Part shown: piece by piece, positions 7,790 to 60,460 of the stretch
Layout: every line of letters starts with the position of its first letter
Position numbering within the stretch: the stretch's first letter is position 1
Assembly (NCBI GenBank): GCA_951406725.2
Contig: OX597818.1
Location: 83,948,001-84,012,000, forward strand
Direction: 5' to 3'
Origin: Octopus vulgaris
Lineage: Eukaryota
DNA: 64,000 nucleotides
Made by a program: the position numbers and the translations under genes
The notes under the pieces: model-generated
The model's database searches: none
Told to the model about the DNA's origin: nothing
What the model saw: the letters and a program-made list of their open reading frames with translations, nothing else

Positions 7790-8620
7790 GATATAAACTT
7801 AGATAAACTTAGATAAACTTAGATATGTTTCGACCAAAGATTGGTCCAGGCCATGTCTAACTTAATAGCACCACCTGATAGGATTATTCGAATCCTGTTT
7901 AAGGCAAGTTTTGTTTAAGTCAAGTTTTGTTCAAGTAGTGAGTTCTTGTTGGGTGAGTTGTATCCAGTTTTGTTCAAGTAGTGAGTTCTTGTTGGGTGAG
8001 TTGTATCCAATTATGGGTGGCTTATCTGGTATTCTTTGAAGGAATCTATCCAGACTATGTTTAAAGTTGATGGGATCCTTTTCCTCTTTGATCTCCCTCG
8101 GGACAATGTTAAATAGGGCAGGGCCTGTTGAGGAAAAGAAAGTATGTTGCAGTGTACATGTATGTTGTGATCTTGAATTGGGCAGGGGACGTATAGCCCG
8201 TGGTCCAAGTCTTGGATGAACCTTGAAGCTAATGTTTAGGTCGTCTTGGCAAAGTTGGCGGTATATTTTCCACATCGTACAAATGATGTACCGCTCACGG
8301 CGACGCTGGAGGGAGTAAAGTTTCAAGGCTTTAAGGCGATCCCAATAATCGAGAGCAGCCATACCTTCAATTTTAGTGAGTGCCCTCTGGGGTGACTCAA
8401 TTCTGGAGATGTTTTGTCTTGTGTGAGGAGACCACAGTGGGCAGCAGTATTCAAGGTATGGCCGTACAAAGGAGGAAAAAAGTGGTATGATGACACCTTG
8501 TTCTCTGGACCGGAAAGTTCTTAAGATCCAGGAACTCATCCTATGAGCTATATTGATGTGTGCACTCCAACTGAGATCGTCATCAACAATTACACCCAGG
8601 TCTCTGATATTGTTAGAGGC
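7790..8620 (-). mobile_element. 5'-truncated CR1/L2-group LINE, C-terminal RT region plus 3' tail
   Basis: The ORF 7931-8848 contains RDLGVIVDDDLSWSAHI, FVRPYLEYCCPLWSP, IESPQRALTK, YWDRLKALKLYSLQRRRER and FKHSLDRFL. There is a short tandem tail (agataaactt)x3 near 7790-7820 and an internal 43-bp duplication at 7923-8009. The ORF's N-terminal part is microsatellite read-through. Confidence 0.9.
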
Positions 8621-9215: not shown

Positions 9216-9551
9216 GCTGTTGTTGTTTTTGTCGTTGATTTTCTTTATCCTATACGACATATAAGCACATACACACACACTCACACACACGCGCTCATAT
9301 GTACACACACACACACACACACACACATACGATGGGCTCCGAATTTTTGTCTCTCAGTCCCACTCAAAGCGCTTTAGTTGACCAGGCCAAGGTATCATGT
9401 ATTGTAAGTGAAGCCGGAACACTGTGGATGGGAAACAAACTTTAAGCCACTCACCAGGTATATCAAATATCATGTATCGCAAATTTTCAAGCAAAATCTA
9501 TATATAAATATCCTGCAGAGTGAGTTGTTCGTCGAGGAAGCGGGGGCCTAC

Positions 9552-9597
9552 CACACGTTGATGATAGGCAATACACCTTGAAACCTAGGTCCGTGTG
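9552..9597 (+). ncRNA. Minimal type-I hammerhead ribozyme motif (C3U variant) inside a long rod
   Basis: CACACG-TTGATGA-TAGG caataca CCTT-GAAA-C CTAG G-TC^-CGTGTG. It has a perfect 6-bp stem I, palindromic stem III (ACCTAGGT) and a GUC triplet, with predicted cleavage after 9591. Confidence 0.7.
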
Positions 9598-9908
9598 TGG
9601 TTTCCGCTTCATCGGGGAATTATCTCCCTTTGCAGGATAAAGGACGCCGTGATGGTGTCAAGCCTATCTGGCGACGTTGATGTTCGCCTGGGGCTAAATG
9701 CAACAGTAACACCCCCACCACCCTGCCCTGTCCCTAGCCATATTCAGATGGCTTTAGTCCCTTATGTTTATATATATATATATATAGAAGTGTGTATGTA
9801 TGTGTGTGATATTAATTTATGGTTGTTAACTCCACGTGGTTGAATATACAAGGAGAAAGAAAAGATGAAAGTACAAATCTGTATTTTTCTCTTTCAGTTC
9901 TCTTTCCT

Positions 9909-9940
<32 letters not shown>

Positions 9941-10381
9941 CGTTCATAAATACTATACAGAGAATATATAGGAACAACTGAAGAAAGGGAATATTCTTTA
10001 TGTTGTATGTCTCATTTCTTTGTTTTTTTTTGTTATTCGAGAAAAAGTTCGTTTCTCTGTTTTTATTTCTCATTGTGTTCAGCGTTTTTTTTAATGTCCA
10101 ATACTCATATATGCATGTATATATGCATATATTTATATTTTATTTATATTATTATGTACATATATATATATATATATATATATACATACACATATTCTTA
10201 ATTACGCATATAATATATGGGAGCAAGCTGTTTTAATTTTTAATGTTTAATTCTTATTTCTTAATACTCGACTTTCAGTTTTTAATATTTGATAGGATGG
10301 ACATACCCATGTGAAATCCCTAATATTCTATAAAAGTATTAATGTAACAAATAAGTAACTAATTATTCTGTTCTATTACAG

Positions 10382-29822: not shown

Positions 29823-30084
29823 TATTCTATAATTTTCACAGACAATAAATACATTATTTGTTATTGCCTGAGATTTTGGTGTAATTTGAGAGGATAATAC
29901 AAAAGTTATGGATGATTTAGTGATTTACTGCAAAACCCATGGCGGCCAAAATGATCAGAACGGTTGCGTTTACTCCGTGTTATAGTATATTTAACCGGCG
30001 AACTCTAATGTTTTGAATTTGTTTACGTGACGGTTCGTTTACTAAACATTAGTAAGAATATTTGCAGTGTATTTTGTTAATATA

Positions 30085-31089
30085 ATGCCACTTACTCCGT
30101 TACCAATTCGTCAGCAGATTATTAAGCTTCGAAAGAAGGATAATTTAAGTATTGGATCTATTGCCAAGATTGTTAACAAGTCAAAAAGTGTTGTACACGG
30201 TATTCTTAAGATCTATGATGATTGTGGTTCGTGTGAAGCAAGAAAGTTTACAGGTAGGCCAAGAAAAACGACCAAGAGAGAAGATCGTGCTATGGTAAAG
30301 TTGGTTAAAAAGGACAGATTTAAAACTGCTGCTGCTGTTTCTCGGAAAATGAGCATTGTATTGAAGAAAACTTTATCTCGAAAAACTGTCTCGTCGTTTA
30401 GTTCAACATAACCTACAAGCAAGGGCACCTGCAGTGAAGCCAATGATCAGCTCCAAGAATAAAAAGTGTCGTCTTACCTTTGCAACCGAACATGTGTTGT
30501 GGTCCCAATAAAAATGGCAAACGGTGCATTTATGTTATTTGTTATTTGGCTCAGATGGGAAAAGGTACGTTCGTAGAAAAGTAGGTGAAAAATTGTCGCC
30601 TAAATGCCTTAAGACTAGTGTTAAATTCGGTGGAGGAAGTGTCATGGTTTGGGGGGGGTGATATCTAGAGATGGTGTGGGCCCTTTGGTGCGATTACATG
30701 GAAAGGTAAATGCAGGAGTTTATAAACAACTTATAAAAGATCATGTCTTGCCTGTGCTGAGAAATTCAGCTAAGCGACCACCCATATTCATGCAGGACAA
30801 TGCCCCATGTCACAAGGCTAAGGTGGTCATGAGCTTCCTTAAGGCTGAAAAGGTTATTGTTATGGATTGGCCTGCTCAAAGCCCAGATCTCAATCCTATT
30901 GAAAATGTATGGAATATTCTAGGAGAACGTTCGAAAGCCAGAAATCCTAAAACAACTGAGCAATTATGGAATGCCCTTCAGGAAGAATGGAATAAGATCA
31001 CCCAGCAAGAAATTGAAAATTTAATTTCCTCATGCAGTCGAAGATGTCAGAGTGTGATTGAAGCTAAAGGGTTTCACACTAAATATTAA
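30085..31089 (+). pseudogene. Tc1 transposase pseudogene
   Basis: MPLTPLPIRQQII...GRPRKTT, KFGGGSVMVWG and QDNAPCH-(34 aa spacing)-SPDLNPIENVW...GFHTKY*, with frameshifts and a stop between ~30400 and 30660. Confidence 0.92.
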
Positions 31090-43299: not shown

Positions 43300-44740
43300 C
43301 ATTGTGGCTTTGTTGTTAAAGCGTAATATGGAAACGACCGATCTGTAATAGCGACGCAGTGAGCGTTCTGTAGACACTTTGCATATGTACCAGCCCGGGA
43401 CACGATTTTTCTTTGGATTTCTAACCATCAAACAACTGAATCACATTGAAAAGAAAATTTTCTGATAGATCTCGGATTGTTAGAACTCCAGAAAATGTGG
43501 CATCAGTGACAGCATCTGTTCAAGAATCGTCAAAGCTAAGCATAGCAATGTTTGTTCCTTCTCGAGCCACGTCTGGCTCATAGAGCCGGTTTCCCGGTTT
43601 CGTTTTGGCGTATAGGTTCCCCCACCTGGACGGGACGCCGGTCCTTCGCAAGTGAGCTGCAAGATGCAGGAGGAAAGAGTGAGAGAAAGTTGTGGCGAAA
43701 GAGTCAGCAGAAGTTCGCATTACCTTCTGCCGGAGCCGTGTGGAGCTTAGGTGTTTCGCTCATAAATATACACATCGCTCGGTATGAGATTCGAACCCAC
43801 GACCCCTCGACCGCGAGTCTGCTGCTCTAACCACTAGGCCATGTGCCTCCATGGGCTAAGCATAGCATAGCATTAGGAATATCTAGCCGAATTTTGAGGA
43901 GGATTCTGGATGCTGATTTGAAACTGCATTCTTACAAAATAATGTTAATTTAAGAATTAACCAAGACACATCATAACAATCGTAAAGCCCTATGTGCGGA
44001 TATTCTTGCACAAGTTTCCGCTACAACTGTTCTTCTGAGTACGAATGAGGCTCACTTCTATGACAATGGAAACGGCAACAAGCAAAATTTTCGCTACTAA
44101 GCTGAACATGATCCTCATTAACTCCACAAAAAAACCGCTTCATTCTCTTCGTGTAACTGTTTGCTGTGCAGTGCCGATTTTGGAGTACTGTTTTGAAGAA
44201 GGTGATGAAACAGCAACGATTACCAACATTGAAATTCTGGAGAACCTTTTGTACCCTAAACTGACAGGTTGGATACCAAACATCTATGTTTTCAACAGGA
44301 CGGAGCCACGGTTCACACAGCTCGACATTCGTTTGGAGTGATGAGGGAAATGTTTCTTGAGCATTTGACTTCTTTGAGAGGAGACGTGGGTTTGCAGGCA
44401 AGGTCACCAGATTTAAGCCCTTGTGATTTTTTTCCGTTGGAGATACCTAAAGGGAAAAGTTTTCCGACGTCACCCTCGGGCTCTTGAGGATTTGAAAGAA
44501 AGGATTCGTGAGAAAATCAACCCCTTGATATGACACGGAGAGTCATGAAAAATGTTTGGGAACGATTGCATTAATGAATTGCCAAACAATAGCCGCCATT
44601 TGCCTAATATAGTTTTTAAAACCCAGTAAAACAAATTGTTTTTTATGCATTCTTCAGAAACATAATACATTTTTTCCTGGATGGTTGTGTTCTCTTTTTA
44701 TATTTATTCACAATGTGGAAGATCTGTATATCCCACTCTG
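43300..44740 (+). mobile_element. Decayed Tc1/mariner DD41D (rosa/Visitor-like) transposon, interrupted by a SINE
   Basis: Peptides RTPENV, NEAHF...NKQNFRY, KPLHSLRVTV and FQQDGATVH...RSPDLSPCDFF, with 41 residues between the second and third D. Ends cactctg|TA. Confidence 0.85.
43548..43854 (-). mobile_element. tRNA-derived SINE (family C-related), full length, with 13-bp TSD
   Basis: Minus-strand A-box tggcctagtggtt, B-box gggttcgaatctc and ggaccggcgtcccgtccagg. TSD gctaagcatagca at 43535-43547 and 43855-43867. Confidence 0.92.
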
Positions 44741-57719: not shown

Positions 57720-60460
57720 TGGACGCACAGTCTGATCTCATTGCCTCTTCTAGTGAACTAACTCAGATTTTTCTCTATTATTCTTTTCTAATACTAAAGC
57801 TGGGCTAAATCTAATAGACTCAGATATGATGGCTCTGTTTAGGGCGTACCACCAGTTATTATTGATGTTGGATCCTGTCAATGCCATTTGCACTAGATCC
57901 TTGATTCGTTCTCTGTAGACTTTGCACGCCAAGAATGACATGTTCAGCTTCCATAAACCGACAGAATCTATGTAAGTCTAGCTTACAGATCACAAATTGG
58001 TGACCCATATAGTTGACGATGTGAAATAGTGGACAGTTAAAGTTAATACGACCTGATAACCTTATAAAATCTCTATCTAGGTAACACCTGGATGACCCGA
58101 TGTTATTGGTCCATGCCCACATTAGAGCAGTCGAGTAATCCATTCTAAACCTGTCAGCCAGTTGAAAGCGACTGAGCAAGTTAGCGAGGCATGGGTCTTC
58201 TTTTCTATCTGTATTCAAGCCAACATAATCCACACGTGCATCTAGTATTGTGTTAAAGTCCCCTACTAATACTAAAGTGCGCGGGTACCAAGGAAGGTCT
58301 CTAGACGCCTGAAGTAGTCTGACTGCCCAGTGTCATTTGGTGCTTAGACAGCGACTAGTCTGCAAGAGTTACAACTACTACGATTCACATCAAGGACGAC
58401 CAGCTTGCTTTCTGAGTCTACAAAGATTGTTCTGATCTCTAAATCCATGTGTTTTCTGAGTAAGACCGCAGTTTCCACCACCACAACCTCTGGACTTGCA
58501 TGGAGATACGTAGATCTCGTAGCCATCGAAGAGGAGCAGGTAGGCCTTCGGCCTGATCAGCCAAATTCCGCTGGTGAGTATCTCATCTAGGTTCCATGAC
58601 CTGGGATCGTTTAGCAAGCGTGTTTGCTTCCAGTACGATCGCAGGCCACGCACATTCACGCTGGCAAGCTTGAGCGAGACTATGAGAGGAGAGGGAAGAA
58701 AAGTTTACTTACTCTTACTCTTCTGGGAAGGATGTAGGTAAATCATCTCTTCCCATTGTAGCTTGTGTGGGCATCCTCCATTAAATTAAGATACAGATAT
58801 TTTGTGAAAGCCAGCTGCAGGTGTCCAACATCGTCAGATTTCTCATTTAATTCAATGTATGAATGATTGTCTATGCGGATAAACTGGACGTGGTTGGGTA
58901 TTTGGAGGTGGGAGGTGGAAGTTTTGAATGTGGTTATGAAGGGACTCTTGTACGTATTTTCAACTAATGAAATTTTGTTGGTATTCCTGGATGTGATGTC
59001 GATGACAGTCTCTAGGGGTAGTGGTGCTGAAGTTTGTTATACTTGTGTAAGCGTGTGGGGCTGTGCATGCAGGAGGATGTGTGTCTGTGGACTGGAGGGC
59101 TGTTGGGGAACTGTTTTTTCTTTTGTGATTTTTTCTTCGCTCCTTTCGAGGTCGGTCGCGTCTGAGGTGTGGTCTTCTGTGGTAGTTGTGTGTCCTTGAC
59201 TGTGATGTTACTGGGGGAATTTTAGGTTGTCGTTCTCTTCGCTCCCTTAGTAGGGTCGTTAGTCTTTGTTGCTAGGACTGAGCTTGTATGTTTAGTGGTT
59301 TCGGGATTGTGAGCCATAGCATTAGTTTCAGCGTTCGTAGTTGAGTCTTCAGGCAGTGTAAGATCGTTAGGTTGAGGGTGACCCTTTGCTGATTGTTCCA
59401 GTGGGTATGTGGCCCTGATGTAACCTTACTGCCCACTGTAACACGTAGTGTTGTTTCATCGGATAATTTAATCAGTTCTGGGATGTATTCCAGATTCTTG
59501 TGGATTGCATGGATAAGGATTTCCAGGCGCCCACCAGTTTTGTTGATGTAGGTTGGTGACTTGCAGAAGAGATATTTTATTTTCTACGCCCCACAGGACA
59601 GCCGCTACCAGCCACACTACATCAATCTCTGGTGGAACCTCCCCTATTTTTTATTTTTGAGGTTCTCTTGCCCAGGTAAATGGGTGATAATACCAGCTCT
59701 GGTGATTTTAAGGGCACTGTGGAATATTTTTTTGCTTCTTCTTCGGTCGCAAACCTAATGTCCACACTGCCGTATATTTTTCCTATCGCAACACAGGTAG
59801 AGTTTTTCCATATTGCTTGTAAGTATTTTTCAATGCTTTACTTTTCTTCGTTTTTACAAAAAGCGTCTGGTATATGATTGTTTTTTTATGTTTGTCATAT
59901 GTATAATTTCGCCGGGTGGGGTTAGATTCACATTGGTTCCATCAGGTTTTAAAAAACTTCTGTATTTTTCAAGGTCTGTTGGGTTAATGCTTATAGTCTC
60001 ATGGTTCACAGTCGCTACAAACGTGAAACCGCGGCTGTTCCGTTTGTTTGTTTGTTTTTTCAGTTTCTTGGTGGTTGGTGTTTGGATTAGGGTGTCCTTG
60101 GCAGAATTTTCATCCTGTCCTGGGCAGAGAAGGTCAGGGAGCATTTCTTGGTACAGTTCGTTGAGCAGGTTGTCATGAACTTGGAAATTAGGGACGTTAC
60201 CTTCGCCTTGGCTGGACGCCACGATGCAGAGATTAATTGTGTAAAACTTTACACTAGAAAATGTACAATTCGCCCCTGAAAAGGGGAAATTCCTGGCACG
60301 ATACTTTAACTACTAGGCAGGTTTAGAATCGAAAATCAACAAAATTAGGAATGTATGAACACAGATTCGGTAAAGTAAATAGCAACACTTACCAGCAGAT
60401 AAAAAAACCATGTCCGTTCAGCAGAAATTGGCGGACAATCATACGTTGTCTAAGGACGGG
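57720..60460 (-). mobile_element. 5' half of a Tx1/L1-clade LINE (5'UTR, decayed ORF1, APE endonuclease); no RT
   Basis: LKLASVNVRGL, RLVAV*APN, LVLVGDFNTILD and WTN...YLDR are APE motifs (~57860-58680), with stops and frameshifts. ORF1 remnant at ~58750-60222. The 5' boundary is approximate. Confidence 0.88.

Follow-up and report, generated by a model that had tools for sequence, protein, structure and literature searches.

A hammerhead-like motif in a 64,000-nucleotide stretch of the Octopus vulgaris genome (contig OX597818.1, positions 83,948,001 to 84,012,000; hereafter the window) raises the question of whether it belongs to a mobile, self-cleaving RNA element and, if so, whether its unusual core marks a damaged copy or the normal state of its kind. 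The initial annotation had allowed for damage, reading the locus as a monomer of about 260 bp of a small structured retroelement of the retrozyme kind, in which a U at position 3 may have weakened the core. The features of the locus, as they now stand, are collected in Table 1.

Table 1. Features of the retrozyme copy and its junctions, in window coordinates
Feature	Position	Strand	Basis or remark
Type I hammerhead motif	9552..9597	+	Predicted cut 9591/9592, from hammerhead numbering
Stem I, CACACG / CGTGTG	9552-9557 / 9592-9597	+	Sequence
Core U3 U4 G5 A6 U7 G8 A9 (TTGATGA), with U3·G8 wobble	9558..9564	+	Common to the subfamily
Stem II: U10.1·U11.1 mismatch (9565/9579), 3 bp, 7-nt loop	9565..9579	+	Sequence
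GAAA, self-complementary stem III ACCUAGGU (predicted dimer helix), GUC (9589-9591)	9580..9591	+	Self-duplex -11.4 kcal/mol
Palindrome ACCTAGGT	9583-9590	+	Sequence
131-nt rod, hammerhead at its tip	9509..9639	+	MFE fold; pairs 9537-9548/9599-9610 and 9509-9520/9628-9639
Three downstream hairpins	9643-9659, 9670-9688, 9736-9753	+	Fold
5'-truncated single arm of the 362-bp retrozyme unit	9493..9768	+	About unit 264-362 plus 1-177, counted from the cut site
15-bp inverted stub at the 5' junction	9483..9497	-	Reverse complement of unit 254-268
Fixed 3' end, site 1 (unit ~174-179)	9759..9768	+	56 of 111 outer arm ends are at site 1
(TA)9 target microsatellite	9769..9786	.	Read from sequence

The hammerhead motif and its rod

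The elements of the motif that had been described, namely stem I, the TTGATGA core, the palindrome and the GUC triplet, were all found in place, as were the two extensions of stem I into the rod and two of the hairpins downstream, besides which a third was seen. Missing from that description was the U·U mismatch in stem II, where the canonical pair is G10.1-C11.1; it is present in 251 of the 254 family motifs in the fetched loci. Two canonical type I features, C3-G8 and G10.1-C11.1, are thus replaced by U3·G8 and U·U, the 3-8 pairing being kept as a wobble. Besides this motif, type I scans of the window retrieved one match, at 43894, which is weak and chance-like, and 40 shuffled windows contained no type I motif of comparable quality; no Rfam hammerhead family was matched, either over the whole window at gathering score or over 9300-10000 by E-value. 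The RNA-level structure that had been proposed for the plus strand was borne out by folding, since the 257-nt stretch reached -99.4 kcal/mol (z -4.6), with none of 200 shuffles as good, against -90.8 kcal/mol (z -2.5) and 2 of 200 shuffles for the minus strand. When 10 family rows were compared, 94% of the cells in the rod were paired, with nine double-sided changes, while the slid controls gave 41-50%. It must be borne in mind that related rows can beat a shuffle control, so that the slid control and the named pairs are what carry weight for covariation.

The copy itself is incomplete. BLAST against a natural monomer gave 273 bp at 98.9% identity, aligning 9493-9765 with unit positions 264-362 and 1-174, and the copy amounts to 0.75 of a unit with a single hammerhead; the true unit is 362 bp, of which 89 bp are absent here, and the earlier description as a ~260-bp monomer must be amended on both counts. 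With one hammerhead and 89 bp missing, the window copy is unable to release unit-length RNA by itself, and is an inert fragment. Over the region used for the trees, it is identical to three other loci (L002, L003 and L004). Of the two TA-rich tracts that had been regarded as flanks, only the right one, (TA)9, is target DNA, while the left one (~9499-9508) belongs to the element itself. The inverted stub is likely a scar of fold-back or template switching, and site 1 would be the start point of reverse transcription.

Several side observations concern the same window. A low-depth 919-nt contig of run X15 tracks the left flank over 9337-9485 and departs at 9485, before the element, which is compatible with an empty site. 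In three large runs, summed contig depth over 9678-9745 was about tenfold higher than elsewhere in the unit, and this stretch is therefore probably common to many more repeat families. Elsewhere, there is a 184-bp tandem dimer of a SINE-like repeat at 1588-1956 and a perfect 43-bp duplication at 7923-8009. Going by their translations, we also note what we take to be a LINE-like reverse transcriptase (RT) fragment (7931-8620, minus strand), Tc1/mariner-like transposase fragments (30046-31089, plus strand) and an endonuclease-like LINE fragment (57859-58332, minus strand).

Family membership and insertion anatomy

The search for relatives and tandem arrays that the initial annotation had recommended was performed on the 2.8-Gb genome at the DNA level, where the 40 best of 1463 candidates contained 81 matches; those ranking highest within these 40 were dispersed and 98-100% identical, and many family copies were tandem, with a period of 362, 361 or 360. 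Each unit carries one type I hammerhead motif with a variant core and is non-coding, the longest ATG frame being 67 codons; the RT and GIY-YIG reading frame of an autonomous Penelope-like element is absent. Insertion maps consisted only of permuted partial tandems, and long terminal repeats were absent. The circular MFE of all seven family monomers had z-scores of -2.2 to -5.7, with 56-67% of the nucleotides paired; the outgroup unit L121 had a z-score of -1.0. By every sequence feature examined, the family would be an animal non-LTR retrozyme, and the proposal of a small structured retroelement of that kind is sustained by the tandem, hammerhead-bearing family of period 362. In the locus counts given here, duplicate or overlapping loci, off-family pattern hits and outgroup loci were left out, as was the compound locus L114 from the comparisons of unit sharing and of classes.

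Some loci deserve separate mention. Two near-identical 836-bp insertions with the same flanks, L024 and L081 (G000:C30:10293008 and 10303910), lie 10.9 kb apart and are a segmental duplication rather than two insertions. Another tandem hammerhead repeat, of period 434 and with a long stem II, occupies L177:2734-3210 (G000:C2:145452242 on). Contigs of eight runs were compared with the loci, a kind of data that carries no information on RNA ends, strand or level. A contig of run X1 on L013:1969-2066 showed A>G in five of its seven differences, three of them within one A run, as A-to-I editing would give in a run that is itself only guessed to be RNA and has no matched DNA. A 22-letter motif from the loose end of run X18 had no match in this genome. 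An snRNA-type promoter was also considered; comparison of the unit with the 110 nt upstream of 12 U2 genes (24 tests) gave no plus-strand match and one minus-strand hit, and such a promoter is unsupported by these 12 genes.

The outer 3' ends of the insertions fall almost entirely at two fixed points 44 nt apart (unit ~179 and ~223), which account for 108 of the 111 ends in the 65 U3·G8 loci; 56 are at site 1, 52 at site 2 (unit 216-223) and three elsewhere, and (TA)4 or longer adjoins 99 of 112 outer 3' ends. Forty-six loci have two arms placed back to back; in 43 of them there is one end per site, in one both ends are at site 1, and in two an end lies elsewhere, i.e., the arms use one site each in 43 of the 44 two-armed loci that have both ends at a site (p 5e-12). 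The same pattern was seen in 19 of 20 such loci of the C3C4-G8 (CC) class and in 9 of 11 of the U3-A8 class. The 5' ends were scattered, only one of 111 lying within 3 nt of the cut site, which is crossed by 95 of the 111 arms, and no poly(A) end was present in the mapped insertions. Arm length extends to 13.6 units or more in the CC class, whereas the maxima in its putative ancestral classes are 3.15 (among 111 arms) and 2.65 (among 31 arms), a comparison in which the four longest CC loci had been chosen for length; the unpicked lists gave 3.2 versus 1.6 motifs per locus.

The composition of the arrays bears on the template from which they were copied. In 135 of 152 cases, a subfamily-level variant was present in every unit of its locus, which is allowed by both circle and multimer models. 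In L050, L057, L113, L115 and L117, unit types were mixed, or a variant was common only to units of the same rank in the two arms; a single monomer circle does not explain these arrays, which favor multimers, dimer circles or template switching. Lengthening of the arms along the lineage, on the other hand, favors a circle or DNA-level expansion, and period-2 alternation, seen at one site in L163 and one in L057, hints weakly at a dimer circle. Local tandem expansion would fit L013. The genomic signs of a circular template are mixed, and a single monomer circle as template was not established.

The insertion anatomy also suggests what enzyme may have moved the family. Insertions of Penelope-like elements, as described in the portions of the literature available to us, comprise partial tandems, an inverted 5'-truncated copy and a tail of 30-40 bp (Craig et al. 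2021, PMC8557442), and reverse transcription can begin at two internal sites, with both DNA strands being cut (Frangieh et al. 2024, PMC11167929). The retrozyme insertions fit this pattern in their pair of ends ~40 nt apart, their inverted truncated arm and their AT-rich target, and by its insertion anatomy the retrozyme works like a non-autonomous Penelope passenger. A young autonomous element of this type in the same genome, with an intact 781-aa frame encoding RT plus GIY-YIG at the C-terminal end, has a minimal hammerhead of the U3-A8 type and terminates in (TA)n at two fixed points separated by 40 nt. When 30 GIY-YIG loci out of 6136 candidates were compared with the retrozyme tail, no sequence match exceeded those of shuffles, and the carrier is thus named here by class and not by family; by analogy, it is likely a Penelope-type enzyme. 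As to the young autonomous family itself, it is represented by L181:681-5526 (G000:C5:1040480-1045325) and 11 sibling loci (L178-L189), and has a 4.7-kb unit in which a second frame of ~479 codons precedes the RT and GIY-YIG frame.

Core classes and predicted activity

The U at position 3, earlier regarded as a lesion of this copy, is the state of a whole amplifying subfamily; the TTGATGA-core spelling has 95 exact matches at 59 loci, while the same motif with C3 has none. The suggestion that a consensus might restore CTGATGA likewise found no such subfamily, as the canonical core had no exact match genome-wide, and no amplified CUGANGA form was present in the family. The amplified classes are different ones. 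Pattern searches of the genome gave 300 matches for U3U4..A8 and 220 for U3U4..G8; a residue other than U at position 3 gave 1239, and the first 100 listed were all C3C4..G8, so that the C3C4-G8 class may number up to 1239. The C3U4 pattern had one loose match that did not resemble a family member, and U3 followed by a residue other than U4 had four, none of which was U3C4G8. The initial annotation had counted a family consensus lacking the core among the grounds that would refute its reading; the consensus does lack the canonical core, but this is no refutation, because positions 3 and 8 pair in every class (U-A, U·G or C-G).

The relationship between the classes was studied in trees built with positions 3, 4, 7, 8 and loop III masked; for a second masked tree, only one row in three was retained from each of the two largest young groups, which kept 90 of the 126 ingroup rows. 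The resulting ladder runs from UUGAUAA to UUGAUGA with loop UA (the window copy), then to loop AU, UUGACGA, CCGACGA and finally CCGAUGA. The CC clade (support 100/96) is nested inside U3·G8, and U3·G8 as a single clade was rejected (p-AU 0.010); a root in the opposite direction was not rejected (p-AU 0.071 and 0.106), the outgroup being distant. Divergence between units within a locus was 1.6% for U3-A8 (17 loci), 0.8% (median) for U3·G8 (55 loci) and 0.46% for CC (24 loci); the U3-A8 loci are older than the U3·G8 loci (p 0.003), and p was 0.06 for the ages of U3·G8 and CC. Residues A8 and G8 also switched in older branches, the trees showing 4-5 changes. Wherever the root is placed, U3·G8, a wobble, stands between two Watson-Crick states. 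The direction from U3-A8 through U3·G8 to C3C4-G8 is likely but not proven, as it rests on the distant outgroup and the within-locus divergence. What the window locus adds is the place of its subfamily, which is the middle rung of the core change. The missing core intermediates were considered as proof of selection, and this argument was dropped, since the CC branch carries several other changes and few single mutants are to be expected.

Hammerheads outside the family were also encountered. Older related repeats (L031-L042, L121 and L122) have the canonical CUGANGA, in most cases combined with C·A in place of a pair at 10.1-11.1, and the general CUGANGA pattern has 586 matches in the genome. 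G10.1-C11.1 occurs together with U3 at L114:540 and L058:506. Each hammerhead lineage that was seen carries at least one weakening change.

It is conceivable, though we find it doubtful, that the lineage was selected for a deliberately detuned ribozyme, the 3-8 pair passing from U-A through U·G to C-G without the canonical CUGANGA ever being amplified. The canonical form is just one change away from two of the family's classes, and the least canonical form, C3C4, which is predicted to misfold, is the most successful and has the longest arms. If this were true, a ribozyme that cuts slowly would leave the RNA circle intact for long enough to be copied by a Penelope-type dimer, starting from both sites simultaneously.

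Indirect signs of selection on the hammerhead fold can be read from the sequences, in that 3-8 pairs in all three amplified classes, the loop III variants TA, AT and TG stay self-complementary in 107 of 111 U3·G8 motifs, even where both loop positions have changed, and stem I displays C-G/U-A covariation. In structure prediction, the double hammerhead was the MFE, or within 1 kcal/mol of it, in 7 of 11 natural dimers, including five of six for U3·G8 and neither of the two CC dimers, where it lay 4.8 and 8.5 kcal/mol above the MFE; the single hammerhead lay 6.4-12.9 kcal/mol above the MFE in all 11 predicted monomers. A lone unit is predicted, then, to fold into a trapped inactive shape and a tandem dimer into a double hammerhead, and this dimer dependence fits the dimer cleavage of axolotl retrozymes.

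In our estimate, the chances that a U3·G8 dimer would cleave detectably are about even or slightly better. Counting against a working ribozyme is the combination, in the same motif, of U3·G8 with U·U at 10.1-11.1. The literature searched offered no measured rate for U3·G8 and no natural wobble path through all three 3-8 states, although published work on 3-8 exchanges and on Penelope hammerhead dimer cleavage may hold rates. Covariation to U3-A8, U10.1·U11.1 and U4C are each described as tolerated in natural hammerheads in the accessible text of Perreault et al. (2011, PMC3088659), and PMC4209133 and PMC7229834 are further partial sources for tolerance of U3-A8, U·U or U4C. According to the portions available of the respective reports, in vitro cleavage failed for eight of nine dimers of frog retrozymes (Li, Clavereau and Pollet 2026, bioRxiv 10.64898/2026.07.22.740005), and insertion did not require cleavage, while the substrate that dominated in vitro was unprocessed RNA (Frangieh et al. 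2024, PMC11167929).

Mechanism and comparison with known systems

We consider it probable that the window copy derives from a young 362-bp tandem retrozyme, that a Penelope-like RT/endonuclease likely inserted it into a TA repeat, and that its U3·G8 hammerhead, normal for the subfamily and predicted to cut slowly, would act only as a dimer. Tandem loci would first be transcribed, following which two hammerheads would pair via the palindromic stem III and cut at GUC, a lone unit being predicted to be inactive. The unit would then be ligated into a circle, by analogy with the coral, mussel and axolotl retrozymes. The putative enzyme would cut both (TA)n strands, and one cDNA would start at each of the two sites, 44 nt apart, at which the ends are observed; both cDNAs would extend past the cut site and terminate at various positions, leaving back-to-back arms, of which the window copy would have retained only that of site 1. 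Over the history of the family, the 3-8 pair would likely have changed from U-A to U·G to C-G along the observed tree, and the window copy would record the middle step.

The strongest alternative retains the same element and carrier, but holds that the ribozyme barely cuts, so that uncleaved multimers serve as template, while the fold would be retained for its role as a signal for processing or for protein binding. Arms that read through the cut site fit this equally well; arrays of mixed units agree with it, as does the preference for unprocessed RNA in the portion of PMC11167929 cited above, and the CC class, which is predicted to misfold as a dimer and has U4C, nevertheless has the most copies and the longest arms. 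We regard it as rather unlikely, because 5'-truncating copying of linear RNA cannot lengthen arms, and the growth of the CC arms beyond those of the putative ancestral classes needs a circle or DNA-level expansion; the period-2 alternation in L163 and L057 points weakly in the same direction. Far less probable is that a LINE, or amplification at the DNA level, moved a satellite or SINE-like repeat in which the hammerhead is a decayed relic. While the non-canonical core and stem II, the lack of an Rfam hammerhead match and the apparent local expansion of L013 would suit such a repeat, it is largely refuted by the paired end points, and the back-to-back arms, TA targets, missing poly(A) end and compensatory changes at 3-8, stem I and loop III argue further against it. 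A chance or single-copy motif, or a regulatory ribozyme adopted by the host at this locus, has nothing in its favor among these results and a negligible probability in view of the 59 loci for one core spelling and the identity to three other loci over the tree region, and chance in particular is refuted by the multi-locus family and the result of the 40 shuffles.

Our literature search found no paper on cephalopod retrozymes, although supplements of retrozyme papers may list mollusc or cephalopod families or core variants. In the parts of the published descriptions that we could access, animal non-LTR retrozymes have tandem non-coding units of 150-450 bp, those of mussel being 350-390 (Cervera and de la Pena 2020, PMC7229834; bioRxiv 10.64898/2026.07.22.740005), and the present family is like them in its one type I hammerhead per unit, GC content below 50% and highly paired predicted circle. 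It further resembles the axolotl HHR_Amex2 in the U·U at the base of helix II and in dimer dependence, which is observed cleavage in Amex2 and a fold prediction here. Unlike the animal retrozymes in those descriptions, the family has U3-A8, U3·G8 and C3C4-G8 cores with no amplified canonical form, two-armed (TA)n insertions with one fixed end per arm, and ends that have no sequence match to the sampled Penelope-like element ends, and it is known here from DNA and predicted folds. The tolerated core variants described in the accessible part of PMC3088659 did not include U3·G8. These states make up a dated natural series, i.e., one ribozyme in U-A, U·G and C-G plus U4C states on a near-constant background, each with its copy number and arm length; the rates of the three core states would show whether the success of a retrozyme rises or falls with cleavage speed, or needs cleavage, a question that Penelope-type elements pose as well.

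With endonuclease-bearing Penelope-like elements, as far as the available portions of their descriptions extend (PMC8557442; PMC11167929; Cervera and de la Pena 2014, PMC4209133), the family shares partial tandems, a 5'-truncated copy in inverted orientation, a pair of 3' end points ~40 nt from each other, insertion into (TA)n, a palindromic stem III and the U3-A8 variant. It differs from them in having no long frame, and in its extended hammerhead on a long rod in place of a minimal one. Finally, the start site showed no strand difference in the accessible part of Frangieh et al. (PMC11167929), whereas the genomic retrozyme arms use one site each, and this pattern of one end per arm provides a genomic test for models of Penelope-type insertion.
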